Below are positions 25,332 through 50,324 of a stretch of DNA of 64,000 nucleotides, one piece after another. The DNA lies in sequence record PQ471516.1. One strand, 5' to 3'. The stretch's first letter is position 1; every line of letters begins with the position of its first letter. The DNA comes from Escherichia phage Turkey5. The translations under genes were made by a program, and so were the position numbers. The notes under the pieces were generated by a model. It saw only the letters and a list, made by a program, of their open reading frames with translations. It ran no database searches and was not told the origin of the DNA.

Positions 25332-25570
25332 TGCATTACAAACATCTTCCAGAAATGGAATTCAGACGCATGTCCAAATCAATCAGACAAAAATACATTG
25401 CAACACAAAGGTACAACCTAAAGTACAAGCACAATATCCATGACGAACGATTGCTGTACGTAGTAGGGACCGAGTATCAGGATAGGGTTGTTAATTCATA
25501 TTTGTACGCCCTAAAAGAGTACATCCTATATCTTTGTAATAACACACAGCACATACAGGACATAAAATGA
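25322..25570 (+). CDS. Family A small protein (82 aa)
   Basis: Motif YVVGTEYQDRV. Confidence 0.6.
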   Translation: MEIMHYKHLPEMEFRRMSKSIRQKYIATQRYNLKYKHNIHDERLLYVVGTEYQDRVVNSYLYALKEYILYLCNNTQHIQDIK

Positions 25571-25887
25571 AATTTAATATCCTAAGAGTATCAAAAAGAG
25601 CGATTTATGCATATGAGTTTAATTATGATCAATTTGATGTAGATATCATTTTGTACAAGAACCGTGAAGGTGAAATGCTTTTTAAGTACCAAAATAGTGA
25701 AGCAGATAATATTCCTTTACCGGATTTAACCAAAATGCAAGAGGATGAATTCTTTCAGCAGAGCTTAGTATACGATATTGATTTTTATAGTATAGATATT
25801 CTTTTAGCTTTACAGAAAAAGATGCACGAAATCTTTAATGATTTAGCCCAAGGCGATGATAGTGCAAGGTTCGTATTCAATGTTTAG
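25567..25887 (+). CDS. Family B (short subtype) protein (106 aa)
   Basis: ATGA overlap; motif EDEFFQQSLVYD. Confidence 0.6.
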   Translation: MKFNILRVSKRAIYAYEFNYDQFDVDIILYKNREGEMLFKYQNSEADNIPLPDLTKMQEDEFFQQSLVYDIDFYSIDILLALQKKMHEIFNDLAQGDDSARFVFNV

Positions 25888-26083
25888 AAACATAGATCCC
25901 AGTCAGTACGCAACCATGTACAGAGATTATTGGATGCAAAGTTCCAGTACCAAGTCCCTTGCGGAATTTCGTATGATATATTTTCTTGGTACAGAGAATC
26001 AAGAAGAAACGATGCTGGACTATCTTGAAGTACTAAAGGTTGAAGTACAAGATGAATACATATTAGGGGTTATAGAGCAGTGA
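25856..26083 (+). CDS. Family A small protein (75 aa)
   Basis: Motif YFLGTENQEET; start uncertain (alt ATG 25880). Confidence 0.55.
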   Translation: MIVQGSYSMFRNIDPSQYATMYRDYWMQSSSTKSLAEFRMIYFLGTENQEETMLDYLEVLKVEVQDEYILGVIEQ

Positions 26084-26574
26084 AATCGAGATTCGTTTCA
26101 GAGTTCAGTACAGATGCGGTGTACGCTAAGGATTTAGTACAGTTATTAATTACATTGCTCAAGGCTAAGGATAATTCAGAAGTTCAAGATTTGTGTAGTT
26201 CTTGTATCCGAGATGCAGGTGGTAATTTGTATATTAAGATAGATGGATTAGAACGTCTTATATATAAACAATCAAAATTCATCCAAAGTTGGACATACCT
26301 TGATTTTGACAGTACATATTCAGCGTACACAAAAAGAAGTACAAAAACCTTTTTTACAATCCAGGGTAAAACGTATAATTTGTTAAAAGAGCCATTAACA
26401 GAAGAAATGTATTTCCAGATGCAATGCTTAGGATTAAGTACAGAAGCGTTAAATGCTTATGTGCTTATTGATGCTATGGAATATTTAGATTTAGATAAGT
26501 ACGTTCCAGACGGATGGAGAATGTCTTTACCTTCGTTATTTGCAGTGTACAATACAATACATGGGGAACCTTAA
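26080..26574 (+). CDS. Family B protein (164 aa)
   Basis: ATGA overlap; motif TEEMYFQMQCLGLS then EYLDLDKYV. Confidence 0.6.
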   Translation: MKSRFVSEFSTDAVYAKDLVQLLITLLKAKDNSEVQDLCSSCIRDAGGNLYIKIDGLERLIYKQSKFIQSWTYLDFDSTYSAYTKRSTKTFFTIQGKTYNLLKEPLTEEMYFQMQCLGLSTEALNAYVLIDAMEYLDLDKYVPDGWRMSLPSLFAVYNTIHGEP

Positions 26575-27085
26575 AGTGAATTTTAATGTAATTGATGTTC
26601 CTGAATTAGCAAAGAAGATTCAAACAATCCTGTACATAGGCAGTTCAATACGAAGTACAGGTGATTTCATCAGGACAGATAAAGTAAGAATGCAAGGTAT
26701 GCGTTCATCATATGATGTTAAAGGTATGTGCACATTTGATATGGTTTATACAAAATACGGAAAGGAAAAGAATGCAATATGTTTATTATCGTTTCCACCG
26801 AACCCTATAGCACCGAGAAATCCTAACAATACATTATGGTACGAGCAAGGTGCAGATACATTAGAGTTCAAGGGTACATTTTATGATGTAGAAGATATTC
26901 CAGCAACAGAAGAAGGAGCATTTCAGTACAGCCTATTGTATCCCGATGATGTAATATTTTATAAGAAGTTATTTTGGGAGTTAAACAATTTACCTCATTA
27001 CACCCCTAATTTTTCAATAGACCTTGAGTGCGTAGATACCGTATACGAAAGTTTAATGGAGTTCATTAGTTATGAAGTACAGTAA
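26561..27085 (+). CDS. Family B protein (~175 aa)
   Basis: Motifs LSFPPNP and EEGAFQYSLLYP; start ambiguous (ATG 26561 or GTG 26576 just after upstream stop). Confidence 0.55.
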   Translation: MGNLKVNFNVIDVPELAKKIQTILYIGSSIRSTGDFIRTDKVRMQGMRSSYDVKGMCTFDMVYTKYGKEKNAICLLSFPPNPIAPRNPNNTLWYEQGADTLEFKGTFYDVEDIPATEEGAFQYSLLYPDDVIFYKKLFWELNNLPHYTPNFSIDLECVDTVYESLMEFISYEVQ

Positions 27086-48052: not shown

Positions 48053-48469
48053 ATGTTACTGTATCATGCCAGCCCAGTTAAAATTGAAAACTTTTACATT
48101 CCATTCGGTGGTTTGCATCTGGGCGGCAAGAACAGTGCACTGGAAGCTGCCCTACGCAAGCTGAGAAGCCCTCTGAACGTCGTAGACGCTAATACGGTAC
48201 ATCTGCATACCTGTGAGGTTAACGTCTCTAAAGTGTATTACAGCGATGATTTGGGTAGTGATGATTCATGGCGTGAGCTTATTGAGTACTGCCAAGCTAA
48301 TGGCTATGATGCAGTACAGTACAAGAATGAGTTCGAGCCTGATGCTGTTCCTAGCTACATGATTTGGGATGTATCTAACATTCGCATCGTTGAAGTTGAT
48401 CCTATGCATATGGATGATGCAGAAATGATTTTGGAGGATTTCTATGCAGAATATGAAGGACAATCTTGA
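48053..48469 (+). CDS. hypothetical protein (138 aa), compositionally distinct (GC-richer) insert in array B
   Basis: N-terminus MLLYHASPVKIENFYIPFGGLHLGG; no family A/B motif; visibly higher GC than flanking genes. Confidence 0.6.
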   Translation: MLLYHASPVKIENFYIPFGGLHLGGKNSALEAALRKLRSPLNVVDANTVHLHTCEVNVSKVYYSDDLGSDDSWRELIEYCQANGYDAVQYKNEFEPDAVPSYMIWDVSNIRIVEVDPMHMDDAEMILEDFYAEYEGQS

Positions 48470-48977
48470 GTGCACTAAGGTAATCTTGAAGATTGCTGAA
48501 ATTTTCAGTACTTTATTGAGCGATGGAAAGATTACAGATGATCTGGTTCTTCCATACCCGTGGAAATTTTCTAAATTTTCTATATTTTATAAATTAGAAT
48601 ACAAAGAACATGCTGTACTGGAGTTTAATCCTAAAGCTGATTTCATTGAGAATAGTACACTGTTCGGGAAGAGTGGGTGCTATACATCGGACTTCAAAAA
48701 GATTACTACGCATATTCGTCCTTCTCCAGAAGAAAACGAGTTCCATTCATTTCTGTATCCTGAATTTAAGTTAACAGAAGAACTACTATTTCAGTACTCA
48801 TTATTGTTCGAAGATGTACAAGATTTAGAGTTCTATAAAGAGTTAGTAGAAACTTTTAAGAATGTGAACCTTAAAAAAGATATTCTTATATTCTGGTTCA
48901 TGGAGTATATTTCGAAGGATTTGCTAGATGAGTTTCTTCTAAATATGACAGCAATTAAGGAGAAGTTATATGCTTGA
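48444..48977 (+). CDS. Family B protein (177 aa)
   Basis: Motif EELLFQYSLLFE. Confidence 0.6.
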   Translation: MQNMKDNLECTKVILKIAEIFSTLLSDGKITDDLVLPYPWKFSKFSIFYKLEYKEHAVLEFNPKADFIENSTLFGKSGCYTSDFKKITTHIRPSPEENEFHSFLYPEFKLTEELLFQYSLLFEDVQDLEFYKELVETFKNVNLKKDILIFWFMEYISKDLLDEFLLNMTAIKEKLYA

Positions 48978-49443
48978 CATTTTAGGTAATATTGATACAG
49001 TAAACTATTTCGTACAAGATGCATTGGTTGGGATTACATCTAAGCCATTGCAGGTTCGCAACAATTTCCATCAGGGTGATGGATACATAGTGGACATTAC
49101 TGAACCGAAAAAGAATGTATTCAATGTTAACATTGCAACAACAGGTCGTAACAATATCGCACGAATTATCATTGACAAGAATGAAATTGTTCTTCGTTAC
49201 AATGCTAAGTTCATGATGTTCTTCAAGAGTAAGACTGACATGTTCAGTACTAATCTCTTTGATGAACCATTTAAATTAGAAGATATCGAAGCAGTGTTCT
49301 TTACACAGAGTACGTGCTTTAAGTTCAAAGATGTAGAATTCAGTCCTGATGTAATGGCTGAAACTTTACAAATGCTAAGGATTATCTATTATGGGTTTAA
49401 TGAGTTTGCACAAGAACGAAACCAGGTTAACAACTGTAGATGA
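48970..49443 (+). CDS. Family B-related protein (157 aa)
   Basis: Motif EAVFFTQSTCFK. Confidence 0.55.
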   Translation: MLDILGNIDTVNYFVQDALVGITSKPLQVRNNFHQGDGYIVDITEPKKNVFNVNIATTGRNNIARIIIDKNEIVLRYNAKFMMFFKSKTDMFSTNLFDEPFKLEDIEAVFFTQSTCFKFKDVEFSPDVMAETLQMLRIIYYGFNEFAQERNQVNNCR

Positions 49444-49849
49444 AACAATCGAGGCAGTACTGGCGAATCTTAGCTCCAAGAGGGATTACTGGTACAAAGG
49501 TATCCGTCTGTATCGTTTAACTGATCGTCACAATCAGGTTACAAATCAGTACGGTACACAGCAAGTCAAGTTCACTGCCTCAAAACGTAACACAGGGTTT
49601 GAAATTTCATGTGTAGTGTTAAATCTAAGTAAAAAACTTCTTGAATGCAATGAAGATTGTGCTATAATGTATGCATCTGGTAACGAAGAGATCAAGATTG
49701 ATTACAGTACACTAGATGAAATTGACTTCTTTCAGTACGAATGCATTGGCATTCAGACTCTGGGAGTTTCTCATGATAAACTGAAGAAACTAATTCATAC
49801 ATTAAAGGGTATAATTGAACATGCAAGTAACTCCGCGTCTAAAGCTTAA
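49391..49849 (+). CDS. Family B protein (~150 aa)
   Basis: Motif EIDFFQYECIGI; start uncertain (53-nt overlap with upstream ORF). Confidence 0.55.
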   Translation: MGLMSLHKNETRLTTVDETIEAVLANLSSKRDYWYKGIRLYRLTDRHNQVTNQYGTQQVKFTASKRNTGFEISCVVLNLSKKLLECNEDCAIMYASGNEEIKIDYSTLDEIDFFQYECIGIQTLGVSHDKLKKLIHTLKGIIEHASNSASKA

Positions 49850-50324
49850 TTTAGAAAAAATTGCTGATTGTCTTCGTACTAACAATATGGATCATAGTCT
49901 TTCGATTACAAGTGACCATATCCAATGTAGTACTAATGATTATACCGTACTGTTCGGGTTTCATAGCCTACGTTTGTCAGTAGTAAATAATCATGATGAC
50001 ACAGCAATTGTCATTACACCTTGTGATGTACTGAACAATGAAGGTGAAGTACTTCACAAGAAACAAACCGTATTCCATATCTTCAGGGGTGATGAGCCAC
50101 AAGCATTGGAATACGATACACTGAACGTTGATAGTGGTGAATTGTTCCAGTTGGGTTTAGTACACGATTGTACTTTCATGGATAACCGAGTAATTCTTCC
50201 TTTGTTGTTGAATATTCTGGTTAACCTTACAACATCTTCAATCCGACACTTCAACGATTCTATTTTAGTACAGGCGATGATAAACGTTTCAGAGGCAATC
50301 GAGGAATACAAAGTCGCCAGTTAA
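49815..50324 (+). CDS. Family B (short-type motif) protein (169 aa)
   Basis: Motif SGELFQLGLVHD. Confidence 0.6.
   Translation: MNMQVTPRLKLNLEKIADCLRTNNMDHSLSITSDHIQCSTNDYTVLFGFHSLRLSVVNNHDDTAIVITPCDVLNNEGEVLHKKQTVFHIFRGDEPQALEYDTLNVDSGELFQLGLVHDCTFMDNRVILPLLLNILVNLTTSSIRHFNDSILVQAMINVSEAIEEYKVAS

Follow-up and report, generated by a model that had tools for sequence, protein, structure and literature searches.

Family B, a block of small genes in Escherichia phage Turkey5 (PQ471516.1), is one real, highly diverged paralogous family of about 40 tandemly duplicated genes. The window, that is, the whole stretch of 64,000 nucleotides analysed here, derives from an Asteriusvirus-type jumbo coliphage with 96-98% identity to JNE01. 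HMM searches confirmed the predicted tandem array of diverged paralogues with a shared core, all on the + strand at 25,567-50,324. The array spans ~25 kb, roughly 7% of the ~355 kb genome. Its existence is not new, since Hua et al. (2017; PMC5646251) gave one sentence to >30 tandemly arrayed genes in 121Q; the array is uncharacterised though already mentioned in print.

Membership and core motif of family B

Across the three plus-strand frames there are 21 occurrences of the strict motif [FY]Q.S[TL][LV], always within 25,753-48,789; the three minus-strand frames have one, with a stop codon in its context. The 21 strict-motif ORFs served as seed for an HMM, which was iterated to convergence over the 387 ORFs of ≥40 aa from both strands; it kept 37 plus-strand ORFs and none from the minus strand. 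Pooled with two related phages, the HMM found 38 members in the window, and an HMM from database homologues alone recovered a total of 39, among them 34834, 44725 and 32397, which the 37-ORF set lacked. ORF 35295 was added by hhalign (91.5% probability). These comparisons give 38 solid and 41 probable members; the large array of the original prediction stands, and its 'about 45' was a slight overcount against the 38-41 found by profile searches. Membership of ORFs 28271 and 49391 is ambiguous.

The extended core reads [S/T]-E-E-x-[FY]-F-Q-x-S-[TL]-[LV]. In every member, its F-Q (or F-M) lies 39-71 aa from the C-terminus (median 54; regular-expression picks, five corrected by eye). The motif is thus positionally conserved, not a compositional artefact. 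The proteins fall into two length classes, 12 short (103-131 aa) and ~29 long (145-198 aa). An N-terminus 'MS(L/F)E.A(L/F)E', ascribed beforehand to several proteins, is present in four (30639, 31468, 31908 and 32945), and the 'FY(L/M)DLD' block, expected 'often' in long members, is present in ~7 long members. Starts 30295, 34522 and 46306 in the following list were reset by promoter/RBS position and JNE01 annotation.

25567..25887, +, short form, 106 aa, EDEFFQQSLVY, HMM E=1.4e-17
26080..26574, +, member, 164 aa, EEMYFQMQCL, HMM E=8e-10
26540..27085, +, member, up to 181 aa, EEGAFQYSLLY, HMM E=1.5e-34; start uncertain (JNE01 annotation 26576)
27072..27662, +, member, 196 aa, EEEFFQYSTLM, HMM E=5e-30
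27740..28261, +, member, 173 aa, GEEYFQYSTLY, HMM E=2.7e-24
28271..28882, +, ambiguous, possibly very diverged member, 203 aa, LFQQQMFE, hhalign 18.7% at motif columns; no significant match to the family B HMM
29112..29504, +, short form, 130 aa, PELEFQYSTLR, HMM E=2e-18
30295..30639, +, short form, 114 aa from ATG 30295, DAELFQARLVF, HMM E=6e-18; ORF opens at 30271, start set by RBS and JNE01 annotation
30639..31115, +, long form, 158 aa, MSLESALE..., EDMYFQLSTLY, HMM E=5e-26
31115..31468, +, short form, 117 aa, DGELFQQSLVF, HMM E=2e-19
31468..31905, +, member, 145 aa, MSLERALE..., PEYYFQQSTIY, FYMDLDILD, HMM E=2e-27
31908..32387, +, member, 159 aa, SDYYFQMSTVY, HMM E=1.3e-24
32397..32945, +, diverged member, 182 aa, ESLFFQNILVL, broad HMM E=7.5e-5, hhalign 98.5%
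32945..33427, +, member, 160 aa, EDYYFQQNTLH, HMM E=1.6e-24
33431..33778, +, short form, 115 aa, EAFMFQESLVW, HMM E=8e-14
33782..34162, +, member, 126 aa, EEGFFQLSLLY, HMM E=3e-21
34522..34833, +, short form, 103 aa from ATG 34522, EEELFQFSLVW, HMM E=3e-19
34834..35298, +, member, 154 aa, EEGFFQLETMY, FYLDLDYLD, pooled HMM E=7.8e-13
35295..35831, +, probable diverged member, 178 aa, EEQCFQLRCT, hhalign 91.5%, E=8e-7; single-family HMM match below significance
36024..36524, +, member, 166 aa, ADSYFQYSFVY, HMM E=9e-25
36511..37053, +, member, 180 aa, DAALFQYSTLY, HMM E=1.6e-22
37034..37384, +, short form, 116 aa, AAKLFQIHTIW, HMM E=4e-13; mostly deleted in JNE01 (window ~37063-37324 missing there)
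37386..37754, +, short form, 122 aa, GELFQLSTVW, HMM E=1.7e-17
38237..38590, +, short form, 117 aa, EGELFQNMCVL, HMM E=1.4e-14
38584..39171, +, member, 195 aa, EESFFMHSTLY, IYLDLDMLE, HMM E=2.4e-22
39232..39705, +, member, 157 aa, SEDYFMNLFLF, FYMDLDCVD, HMM E=2.4e-17
39662..40186, +, member, up to 174 aa (start uncertain), EDSYFQYLCIH, HMM E=1.1e-23
40176..40517, +, short form, 113 aa, TEELFQMSCSD, HMM E=4e-14
40521..40916, +, short form, 131 aa, SEEIFQYSLVH, HMM E=4e-18
40917..41384, +, member, 155 aa, PENFFQQSLLY, HMM E=5e-22
41381..41926, +, member, 181 aa, EEEEFQFSLIQ, HMM E=3.7e-14
41913..42431, +, member, 172 aa, EEGRFMLSTVL, HMM E=3e-21
42521..43060, +, member, 179 aa, ESTYFQMCTLH, HMM E=1e-19
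43047..43616, +, member, 189 aa, ESSWFQYSLLD, HMM E=1e-21
43609..44187, +, member, 192 aa, QGKVFQMITVE, HMM E=6.5e-18
44725..45180, +, diverged member, 151 aa, DSLYLQYSSTY, broad HMM E=1.3e-10, hhalign 45%
45173..45658, +, member, 161 aa, DELQFQLSTLY, HMM E=1e-23
45658..46239, +, member, 193 aa, EEWYFQNSLLH, HMM E=4e-25
46306..46860, +, member, 184 aa from ATG 46306, PDEHFQCSTLY, HMM E=2.4e-20
47454..48050, +, member, 198 aa, NERIFQKSTVQ, HMM E=1.8e-19
48444..48977, +, member, 177 aa, EELLFQYSLLF, HMM E=5.7e-21
49391..49849, +, ambiguous, possibly diverged member, 152 aa, EIDFFQYECIG, HMM E=0.12, hhalign 16.6% at motif columns
49815..50324, +, last member, 169 aa, SGELFQLGLVH, HMM E=1.7e-21

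Genomic setting, distribution and operons

The placement of the array is constant: it directly follows the left direct terminal repeat (DTR, ~20 kb) and lies 5' of a conserved ADP-ribosyltransferase-like gene; in each phage where the window-derived HMM detects family B ORFs, they share one strand and lie right behind the DTR. Three neighbouring features frame or interrupt the array in the window:

1..20360, +, left DTR, inner part, boundary inferred by homology
20522..25570, +, family A, a separate array of ~20 small paralogues of 75-88 aa with an 'LGTNYQE' motif
48053..48469, +, non-member, conserved single-copy gene, 138 aa, embedded near the array's 3' end

Window 1..20360 matches 2-20 kb of CRJP21 and vB_Ec-M-J, which lie under the feature 'Direct Terminal Repeats'. 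As far as window 20,207, proteins share 83-100% identity with fEgEco12, whose DTR measures 20,993 bp; beyond that point, identity falls to 30-50%. Family A, with invariant G and Q in its alignment, has three further copies scattered at 25856, 29670 and 35828; kinship with family B was rejected because hhalign gave a probability of 0.2%, and the two families are hence unrelated. The gene at 48053..48469 (identity 76% in fEgEco12, 63% in Muenster and 40% in CBB) obtained no function from Pfam, PDB-sequence or PHROG searches, and its Muenster orthologue carries the depositors' label 'putative ADP-ribosyl transferase' from their HHpred run.

The window-derived HMM detects 41 ORFs in fEgEco12, 40-41 in 121Q, 42 in phAPEC6, 37-38 in JNE01 and 26-27 in the smaller array of Klebsiella phage Muenster. 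Pectobacterium phage CBB has one significant ORF with ~5 motif-bearing neighbours. Copy number thus varies among related phages, as the proposed comparison was meant to reveal, from 39-43 (fEgEco12, 121Q and phAPEC6, where the array is collinear) to 26-27 (Muenster) and ~5-6 (CBB). Only enterobacterial jumbo phages of the Rak2-like group (Asteriusvirus, Alcyoneusvirus, Mimasvirus and relatives) carry family B. The array is not exceptional to one phage, being collinear across Asteriusvirus and found in two or more further genera.

Promoters were called as consensus matches with a cut-off of 10/12. The DTR, whose small genes each carry their own sigma-70 promoter, is enriched in promoter-like sites (104 vs 64 expected) and holds ten perfect TTGACA-N16/17-TATAAT sites, all on the + strand. 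The array is depleted (60 vs 93 +/- 10 expected) and its genes are tightly packed, in line with the packing and scarcity of promoters first reported. It is predicted to be split into about seven operons of 2.4-4.7 kb. Six intergenic gaps hold a sigma-70-type site, five strong and usually with an extended -10, and one weaker; these promoters are often preceded by an intrinsic terminator, and the pairs occupy the few intergenic gaps:

25037..25065, +, putative sigma-70-type promoter TTGACA-17-TATAGT with TG extended -10, heading the first operon; positional counterpart in fEgEco12 (L002 14521)
27650..27709, +, intrinsic terminator 27650-27671 and T-run, then promoter TTGACA-17-TACAAT at 27681-27709, gap 27662/27740; same position kept in fEgEco12 (L002 19613)
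34478..34505, +, perfect sigma-70 promoter TTGACA-16-TATAAT with TG (12/12), heading the next operon; RBS/ATG downstream at 34522
39168..39197, +, promoter TTGACC-18-TATAAT (TG), gap 39171/39232; fEgEco12 counterpart perfect, same position (L002 31126)
42430..42490, +, terminator 42430-42447 and T-run, then promoter TTTACA-17-TATAAT (TG) at 42462-42490; identical hexamers at the same position in fEgEco12 (L002 35004)
46246..46285, +, terminator hairpin 46246-46269 and T-run, overlapping a weaker promoter-like TTGACT-17-TACTAT (TG), 9/12 and under the cut-off; RBS follows
50950..50970, +, terminator-like hairpin 3' of the last operon

Four array promoters are positionally conserved in fEgEco12 despite only ~30% protein identity.

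Age of the copies and selection

The copies are ancient. The all-vs-all comparison proposed for dating them points to old duplications: the closest intra-array pair shares 36% identity and just 27/780 pairs are BLAST-detectable. Nearest relatives within the array tend to be neighbours, and one two-gene cassette is duplicated (31115+31468 matching 30271+30639, with a 50-nt junction repeat 88% identical). The positional orthologues in fEgEco12 are collinear with only 22-59% identity, against 68-90% for interleaved single-copy genes and 83-100% for DTR genes. The best-conserved member across Asteriusvirus is 31115..31468 (DNA 77-80% identical in 33 genomes); for 26540..27085, the best tblastn match in other Asteriusviruses reaches just 32-35%.

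Between the window and JNE01, dN/dS is 0.25 for family B (31 genes), 0.10 for the DTR and 0.21 for the right flank; between fEgEco12 and 121Q, it is 0.23 for family B and 0.05 for the flank, with indels or partial alignment in 33/39 family B genes. Selection on family B is thus purifying and relaxed relative to flanking genes (0.05-0.21), so that the label 'diversifying' initially proposed is not supported. The sole gene with dN/dS near 1 is 32945..33427 (5 synonymous and 23 non-synonymous differences from JNE01). Gene-wide dN/dS values so far under 1 do not demonstrate an arms race. Furthermore, short-term dN against JNE01 hardly differs between family B (0.017) and flanking genes (0.015). 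Hence, part of the deep divergence from other Asteriusviruses could stem not from rapid evolution but from recombinational exchange of an old module.

Predicted fold and proposed role

Pfam, NCBIfam, PADLOC and PDB-sequence searches returned no match for any family B member, in agreement with the earlier statement that no characterised family carries the motif, and the PADLOC search gave no mimicry of defence proteins. Family B is divided among 28 PHROGs, all of unknown function. Among 1.84 billion proteins, 150 cluster representatives match, all of 93-215 aa, and each of ten matching clusters checked is unnamed or 'hypothetical'. AlphaFold models of the long form 30639..31115 (pLDDT 83.4, pTM 0.79) and the short form 31115..31468 (pLDDT 82.4, pTM 0.79) predict a common alpha+beta fold of an antiparallel sheet, the motif helix, a second helix and a last strand, to which long forms add N- and C-terminal helices. 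Neither model has a significant PDB neighbour, and the fold gives no functional hint; every named BFVD match at E <0.05 is an uncharacterised protein of Rak2-like phages, and several others are unnamed. In each model the motif sits in a helix within a high-confidence block (101-108 in the long form, 65-74 in the short). It would supply the N-cap and initial turns of this helix, the first to follow the sheet, and thus belong to the fold core rather than to a catalytic or cleavage site. Nearly all surface outside it has probably diverged. The proteins were described as almost unrelated outside the shared blocks, which holds for sequence, but the profile covers the proteins from end to end and the AlphaFold models have a fold in common.

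Family B products have a median pI of 4.7 and a net charge of ~-10 (other window genes, pI 6.2), the sole basic member being 40917..41384 (pI 8.9). Acidity of this moderate degree is widespread in early phage proteins and not specific. GRAVY is near or below zero (maximum 0.09) and gives therefore no sign of membrane proteins; the products are predicted to be acidic and soluble. None of the 62 proteins in the published phAPEC6 virion proteome falls between gp348 and gp548, which includes the array (gp404c-gp466c), and the virion proteins of RaK2 come from two other clusters of genes. The related phage PA5oct relies on host RNA polymerase, and its DTR genes are transcribed early (PMC7318152). 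PA5oct is the only relative with RNA-seq, and family B was not found in its first 50 kb, so these timing data transfer only by analogy.

Our best reading, which we consider about evenly balanced, is that family B represents an early, host-directed takeover or counter-defence repertoire. Given the sigma-70-type sites in the array gaps, transcription of the array by host RNA polymerase would come early, either following that of the promoter-dense terminal repeat or alongside it. The soluble, acidic, non-virion products would be kept by purifying selection while diverging rapidly by substitutions and in-frame indels. We propose that they constitute host-directed binders with one scaffold and many surfaces, and that every paralogue acts on a host factor of its own by neutralising or redirecting it. 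For CBB, the authors guessed that the short hypothetical ORFs CBB_390-546 form an early host-takeover region (PMC5259590); that region lies upstream of the right terminal repeat and thus differs from the family B array. In architecture, the suggested likeness to the multigene families of large eukaryotic viruses is borne out: as in their terminal multigene families, tandem paralogues adjoin a terminal repeat.

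Membership, motif and genomic position of family B

Family B is a real, old, tandemly expanded and lineage-restricted family of about 40 intact plus-strand genes with a common predicted fold; it adjoins the terminal repeat and is under purifying selection. The strict form of its core motif, [FY]Q.S[TL][LV], has 21 occurrences across the three plus-strand frames, always within 25,753-48,789, and a single one in the minus-strand frames, beside a stop codon. A profile HMM seeded on 21 ORFs and iterated over all window ORFs of 40 aa or more (387, counting both strands) recovered 37 ORFs, all on the plus strand. 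The HMM count rises to 38 when two related phages are pooled with the window, and an HMM built from database homologues only gives 39 in all, with 34834, 44725 and 32397 (ORFs are named by their start in the window) added to the 37-ORF set. Profile-profile comparison supports 32397 (98.5%) and 35295 (91.5%) and leaves 28271 and 49391 ambiguous. Taken together, the HMM and profile-profile results thus put family B at 38 solid and 41 probable members. Hence, the family foreseen by the original prediction stands, while its size of 'about 45' has to be lowered.

In every member the F-Q (or F-M) core lies 39-71 residues from the C-terminus, and F and Q are the only near-invariant columns of an alignment with a mean identity of 13%. 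A profile-HMM match combined with an F-Q core helix at this distance from the C-terminus is found in 38-41 window ORFs. Two further blocks that had been noticed beforehand are also present: the N-terminal 'MS(L/F)E.A(L/F)E' block, as 'MSLE.ALE', in four members and the C-terminal 'FYLDLD' block in about seven long members. That the motif might be a low-complexity or compositional artefact, the outcome that would have spoken against the family, was rejected on three grounds: the signal depends on strand and frame, the motif keeps its position relative to the C-terminus, and the fold prediction is confident. Several candidates were tried and rejected: 37735, 44180, 34164, 48053, 50365, 50978 and 53004 were not accepted by profile-profile comparison, and 23273 (HMM E=0.055) is without the motif.

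Over 30,000-38,000, the window is 96.1% identical to Escherichia phage vB_EcoM_JNE01 (JNE01; 355,583 bp, Asteriusvirus), and over 44,000-64,000 it is 97.6% identical to the same phage, running across the arbitrary start of the JNE01 record. The genomes of 33 other large coliphages and Salmonella phages match 30,000-38,000 over about 260 bp only (77-80%). Window positions 1-20,231 correspond to positions 2-20 kb of CRJP21, vB_Ec-M-J and others (91-96%), and the matched stretch of CRJP21 and vB_Ec-M-J carries a feature annotated 'Direct Terminal Repeats'. The direct terminal repeat (DTR) of Asteriusvirus measures about 21 kb, which restriction mapping confirms in fEgEco12 (PMC13070987; also Sharanji). 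Thus, the window starts inside the left DTR, and family B, judged by this homology, lies in the first unique DNA after it.

Near the inferred end of the DTR, an 80-bp unit is exactly duplicated in tandem (20194-20353; two copies, 100% identical). The unit is present as a single copy in JNE01 (97.5%), and fEgEco12 and 121Q share its first ~37 nt only. Within the DTR, 15966-16607 is a 213-aa gene whose orthologues in fEgEco12 and in Klebsiella phage Muenster are annotated as serine/threonine protein kinase, and other DTR orthologues are annotated as acetyltransferase and DksA-like zinc finger. The kinase, acetyltransferase and DksA-like annotations suggest that the whole left end might be a host-takeover region.

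A second array, family A, occupies 20522-25570. Its roughly 20 neighbouring genes encode 64-88 aa each and share an 'LGTNYQE' motif in which G...Q is invariant. Three further copies of the gene lie inside the family B array (25856-26083, 29670-29864 and 35828-36037), and jackhmmer with one member as query found 91 homologues in five phage segments. Homology between families A and B was ruled out (hhalign probability 0.2%). Just right of the family B array are two larger ORFs, 50978-51826 (282 aa) and 53004-53951 (315 aa). In fEgEco12, each has its best hit (~35% identity) in a separate 282-aa ORF, suggesting that 50978 and 53004 might be paralogues of each other. 50978 carries 'EYMFQVELTL' near its C-terminus, and the profile tests place neither ORF in family B. 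No tRNAs were found in the window.

Predicted fold and database relatives

AlphaFold models of a long member (30639; pLDDT 83, pTM 0.79) and a short member (31115; pLDDT 82, pTM 0.79) share a predicted core in which an antiparallel sheet of four to five strands is followed by the motif helix, another helix and one last strand. In long forms, this core is supplemented by helices at both termini and by a variable insert. The first helix after the sheet begins with the motif, where an S/T N-cap and acidic residues precede F-Q-x-S-[TL]-[LV], and the motif falls in the best-predicted part of both models. Based on this position and on general knowledge of helix capping, the motif is likely to belong to the structural core of the fold rather than to an active site or a cleavage site. 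The motif resembles a TEV-like protease site (E-x-x-Y-F-Q|S); this candidate was dropped because the motif sits in a well-ordered helix of the models. We know of no Q-specific protease in Rak2-like phages.

The named matches in a viral structure library at E<0.05 are uncharacterised proteins of 121Q, SP27, RaK2, GAP32 and fHe-Yen9-04; several matches at this threshold are unnamed, and weaker ones include Erwinia phage pEa_SNUABM_47 and Serratia phage BF. As modeled, the family B fold appears to be without a known relative. The proteins are acidic (39 of 40), with a median pI of 4.7 and a net charge of about -10, compared to a pI of 6.2 for other genes of the window. Since their GRAVY values are near or below zero, nothing suggests that they are membrane proteins.

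Sequence databases bear out the expectation that no characterised family carries the motif. None of 39 members matches any Pfam family at E<=0.01, and none matches PADLOC-DB, which gives no similarity to known defence-system proteins. NCBIfam returned two isolated matches of single members (E~0.004), far below the cut-offs, and the family profile has no match among PDB sequences. The members are spread over 28 PHROGs, a resource built by remote homology (9317, 12674, 13866, 15629 and 24 others; best E=1e-52), and the function of all of them is given as 'unknown'. Among 1.84 billion representative proteins, 150 clusters match the family profile, all of them 93-215 aa long and without fusions. 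Ten clusters that were checked are unnamed or named 'hypothetical protein', and those of the ten that are identifiable derive from phage contigs of 346-366 kb, E. coli assemblies with such phages, RaK2, K64-1 and Muenster. A tblastn search with the profile consensus, which has low sensitivity for mapping distribution, reached Asteriusvirus-like genomes only. About 7% of a 355 kb genome encodes one protein family that is not recognised as such by any database. BLAST-based paralogue counts miss it because pairwise similarity is too low, and PHROGs splits it. With the family defined, the roughly 40 'hypothetical proteins' of each genome can be studied as a single testable entity whose architecture is clear, whose expression window is probable and whose structural model is confident.

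Distribution and mode of evolution

The proposed comparison with related genomes shows that copy number varies little within the genus (37-43) and strongly beyond it (26-27 in Muenster, about 5-6 in Pectobacterium phage CBB).

Family B in related phages
fEgEco12: 39-43 members, 27.3-56.3 kb, one strand (window-derived profile)
121Q: 40-41 members, 160.8-189.2 kb of the record, one strand (window-derived profile)
phAPEC6: 42 members, gp404c-gp466c, one strand (window-derived profile)
JNE01: 37-38 members, one strand (window-derived profile)
Klebsiella phage Muenster: 26-27 members, from 0.9 kb after the DTR, one strand (window-derived profile)
Pectobacterium phage CBB: one significant member and about five motif-bearing neighbours (CBB_53-58), directly after the DTR, one strand

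In the first 50 kb of PA5oct, the window-derived profile finds no family B member. The large expansion of family B therefore seems, from these profile counts, to be a property of Escherichia and Klebsiella phage lineages. At least 34 sequenced phages of E. coli and Salmonella have an equivalent region, as do Klebsiella and Pectobacterium relatives. In fEgEco12, Muenster and CBB, the array lies directly downstream of the left DTR on one strand with collinear best hits: the DTRs measure 20,993, 20,030 and 22,456 bp, and the members begin at 27.3, 20.9 and 22.5 kb, respectively. The array is closed by three single-copy genes, 48053, 48970 and 50365, in all three genera. This shared anatomy points to an ancestral layout of DTR, family B and a gene resembling an ADP-ribosyltransferase (ART). 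The latter, at 48053-48469 inside the array, encodes 138 aa and is single-copy and conserved, with identities of 76% (fEgEco12), 63% (Muenster) and 40% (CBB). Its Muenster orthologue is annotated as 'putative ADP-ribosyl transferase' from the depositors' HHpred search, and Pfam, PDB-sequence and PHROG searches with 48053 give no ADP-ribosyltransferase match.

The all-vs-all comparison suggested for dating the duplications shows that the copies are old. The most similar pair in the window array is 36% identical, 27 of 780 pairs are detectable by BLAST, and the best hit lies within two positions for 15 of 40 members. At 30271-31905, a two-gene cassette of a short and a long member is duplicated as a unit, with 88% identity over 50 nt between its stop/start junctions (30613-30662 and 31442-31491), much more than in the remainder of the genes. 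Low pair identity, neighbouring best hits and the duplicated cassette thus indicate duplications that are both old and tandem.

Between the window and fEgEco12, best hits are strictly collinear at 22-59% identity, with some members lacking a BLAST hit, as compared to 83-100% for DTR genes and 68-90% for the interleaved single-copy genes. Relative to JNE01, dN/dS is 0.25 for 31 members, 0.10 for the DTR and 0.21 for the right flank; between fEgEco12 and 121Q, it is 0.23 for family B and 0.05 for the flank. In the latter comparison, 33 of 39 members show indels or align only partially. A single member, 32945, has a dN/dS near 1 (28 substitutions). Window 37063-37324 is missing in JNE01, whereby most of member 37034 (37034-37384) is absent from one of two phages that are otherwise 96-98% identical. 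Family B thus appears to undergo fast, indel-rich divergence under relaxed purifying selection. The description of the family as 'diversifying' did not survive the gene-wide test, where values above 1 across the gene would be expected and 0.25 and 0.23 were obtained.

A DNA repeat search found no diversity-generating or template-variable repeats in the family B span and no tandem DNA arrays of note in the locus. Within the span, repeats are confined to 25-50 nt stretches that correspond to the coding sequence of the motif or to a single gene junction. Longer repeats occur upstream, in the family A/DTR-boundary region, namely a 206-nt pair at 23653 and the 80-bp duplication at 20194. Diversity-generating or repeat-driven variation was rejected because the span is without DNA repeats beyond the motif codons and the one junction.

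Expression, candidate functions and comparison with known systems

The DTR part of the window contains 104 promoter-like sites (64 +/- 10 expected). Ten of them match TTGACA-N16/17-TATAAT perfectly, each on the plus strand. The variants TTGCAA-16-TATAAT (about 14 sites) and TTGACA-17-CATAAT (several sites, with TG) are also represented in the DTR (1-19000), where nearly all sigma-70 promoter sites have plus-strand orientation and each small gene has roughly one. The family B array is depleted in promoter-like sites (60, with 93 +/- 10 expected), in agreement with the few promoters noticed originally. Six intergenic gaps in the array carry a sigma-70-type site. Five of these sites are strong (11-12 of 12 consensus matches), four of the five have a TG extended -10, and the weaker sixth, at 46257, matches at 9 of 12 positions. 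An intrinsic terminator precedes the promoter in three of the six gaps, and a further gap at 30.1 kb contains a terminator-like hairpin only.

Promoter and terminator sites of the array, by consensus matches
25037: sigma-70-type site
27650, terminator; 27681, promoter
34478: promoter (12/12)
39168: promoter
42430, terminator; 42462, promoter
46246, terminator; 46257, promoter

Four array promoters occupy the same gene boundaries in fEgEco12, where the flanking proteins are only ~30% identical. In the DTR, a 28-nt hairpin, AAAGGGATTGACTCnGGTCAGTCCCTTT, occurs in four copies (9571-9598, 13314-13341, 16619-16646 and 18881-18908) with a -35-like TTGACT in its stem. As it is followed by GCTATTATAT each time, terminator and promoter appear to be fused in one element; 46246-46285 has a similar design.

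Sigma-70 consensus promoters upstream of the transcription units are what would mark early genes of the host RNA polymerase. We infer about seven operons that would be read by host RNA polymerase and hence expressed early. In the related PA5oct, transcription depends on host RNA polymerase and DTR genes are transcribed early (PMC7318152); since PA5oct, the one relative with RNA-seq, is without family B in its first 50 kb, this timing transfers by analogy only. The authors of the CBB genome surmised an early host-takeover region upstream of the right terminal repeat (CBB_390-546; PMC5259590), which consists of short hypothetical ORFs and is a different region from family B. A literature search found no transcriptome of any Asteriusvirus, Alcyoneusvirus or Mimasvirus.

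For the function of family B, we consider it about an even call that the proteins form a repertoire that binds host factors for takeover or counter-defence, in which one scaffold would present many surfaces. More tentatively, and as a possibility we would not bet on, they might form a 'library' of about 40 early binders on a previously unseen alpha+beta scaffold, each disabling a different host defence or housekeeping factor and thereby setting host range. Alternatively, the array might be filler, i.e., tandem duplicates that enlarged the genome for a larger capsid according to the ratchet model of Hua et al. and now drift with little or no function. Hua et al. use a tandem array of >30 genes in 121Q as evidence for expansion by duplication (PMC5646251). 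Constraint is indeed looser than in the flanks (dN/dS 0.22-0.25 vs 0.05-0.21), in-frame indels are common (33 of 39 genes), JNE01 has lost one member without obvious consequence, and copy number ranges from 5-6 to 43 between genera. However, neutral duplicates of this age should have accumulated stop codons and deletions, whereas about 40 intact ORFs are collinear in five Asteriusvirus genomes despite ~30% identity, with dN/dS well below 1 in two independent comparisons, a confidently predicted fold, a core motif kept in all members and conserved promoter and terminator positions. Filler is thus an unlikely explanation.

Phage-internal regulators of transcription or replication, or competition factors in superinfection exclusion or inter-phage conflict, would suit small, soluble proteins encoded in a probable early region among a kinase, a DksA-like protein and an acetyltransferase (by DTR annotation). 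Yet acidic proteins are unlikely to bind DNA, forty diverged copies are ill-suited to regulating a conserved phage programme, and their divergence is far above that of neighbouring phage-core genes. Classical superinfection-exclusion proteins are usually membrane proteins, and family B has no membrane segments. Overall, phage-internal regulators or competition factors are a quite improbable reading. We regard it as very doubtful that the paralogues are accessory or targeting subunits, or regulators, of the ART-like 48053 enzyme, with one host target each. 48053 is a conserved single-copy neighbour in three genera, and in CBB the ART-like gene lies directly 3' of the last member, but this support is adjacency throughout, and the ART assignment is the depositors' HHpred note that our searches did not reproduce. 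To our knowledge, forty adaptors for one enzyme would be without precedent. As the inner-body proteins of phiKZ are paralogues of one another, family B might also be packaged, either within a capsid 'inner body' or for ejection with the DNA, and 121Q and phAPEC6 do possess an inner body (PMC5646251; PMC7247149). However, the 62 phAPEC6 virion proteins determined by ESI-MS/MS, with detection down to 4.7 kDa, include none of its 42 members and none between gp348 and gp548 (PMC7247149), RaK2 virion proteins map to two other gene clusters (PMC3622015), and the array promoters are sigma-70-type rather than late-type. Based on these published proteomes, family B is absent from virions, which argues against the inner-body idea and renders it highly improbable.

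If family B proteins are host-directed inhibitors, they would amount to a large collection of natural variants built on one scaffold, which could serve target discovery in E. coli and Klebsiella, including immune systems, and could help to explain the host range of jumbo phages considered for therapy. If the array is dispensable, it would allow the 'capsid-ratchet' model, in which genomes grow by duplication, to be tested on a concrete example.

An array in the Rak2-like phage group was already known to exist. Hua et al. (2017, mBio; PMC5646251) devote one sentence to the tandem array of 121Q, without coordinates, family definition, motif, structure or function, and general remarks on paralogues exist for RaK2 (~10% of genes; PMC3622015) and CBB (22 ORFs; PMC5259590). 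121Q belongs to the same phage group and has 40-41 family B members, and the array of Hua et al. is very probably family B or the adjacent family A array. Its genes are called 'very similar', whereas family B members are at most 36% identical and mostly undetectable by BLAST. A literature search found no description of the family definition, true size, motif, fold or operon structure of family B, and nothing on its conserved post-DTR position, cross-genus distribution or mode of evolution.

Among known host-takeover systems, the T5 pre-early, SPO1 terminal-redundancy and T4 early modules (Alt/ModA/ModB ADP-ribosyltransferases) likewise lie at or next to a terminal repeat and combine strong sigma-70-type promoters, small proteins of unknown fold and a nearby ADP-ribosyltransferase-like gene, which is putative for family B. 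These modules comprise many unrelated genes, whereas family B is one family of about 40. In this respect, it resembles the single-family zinc ribbon expansion of the jumbo Bacillus phage G (~35 copies; Iyer et al. 2021, PMC7824862), which has a recognisable domain and plausible nucleic-acid binding, in contrast to the acidic family B proteins without one. Family B would represent a divergent case of tandem paralogue expansion in jumbo phages. With the anti-restriction DNA mimics Ocr and ArdA, it shares small, acidic and soluble proteins and, as far as promoters indicate, early expression.

The MGF360/505 families of ASFV and the host-range/ankyrin families of poxviruses also comprise dozens of non-structural tandem paralogues beside a terminal repeat, with copy number varying between relatives and evolution faster than in the core genome. 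There is no homology to family B, and the host-range or immune-evasion role is demonstrated there and inferred here. Unlike those families, family B has a strongly conserved paralogue order with rare gain and loss within the genus. If the 'library' reading is true, family B would be the bacterial-virus counterpart of the ASFV and poxvirus terminal families and a rich source of new inhibitors of bacterial immunity.
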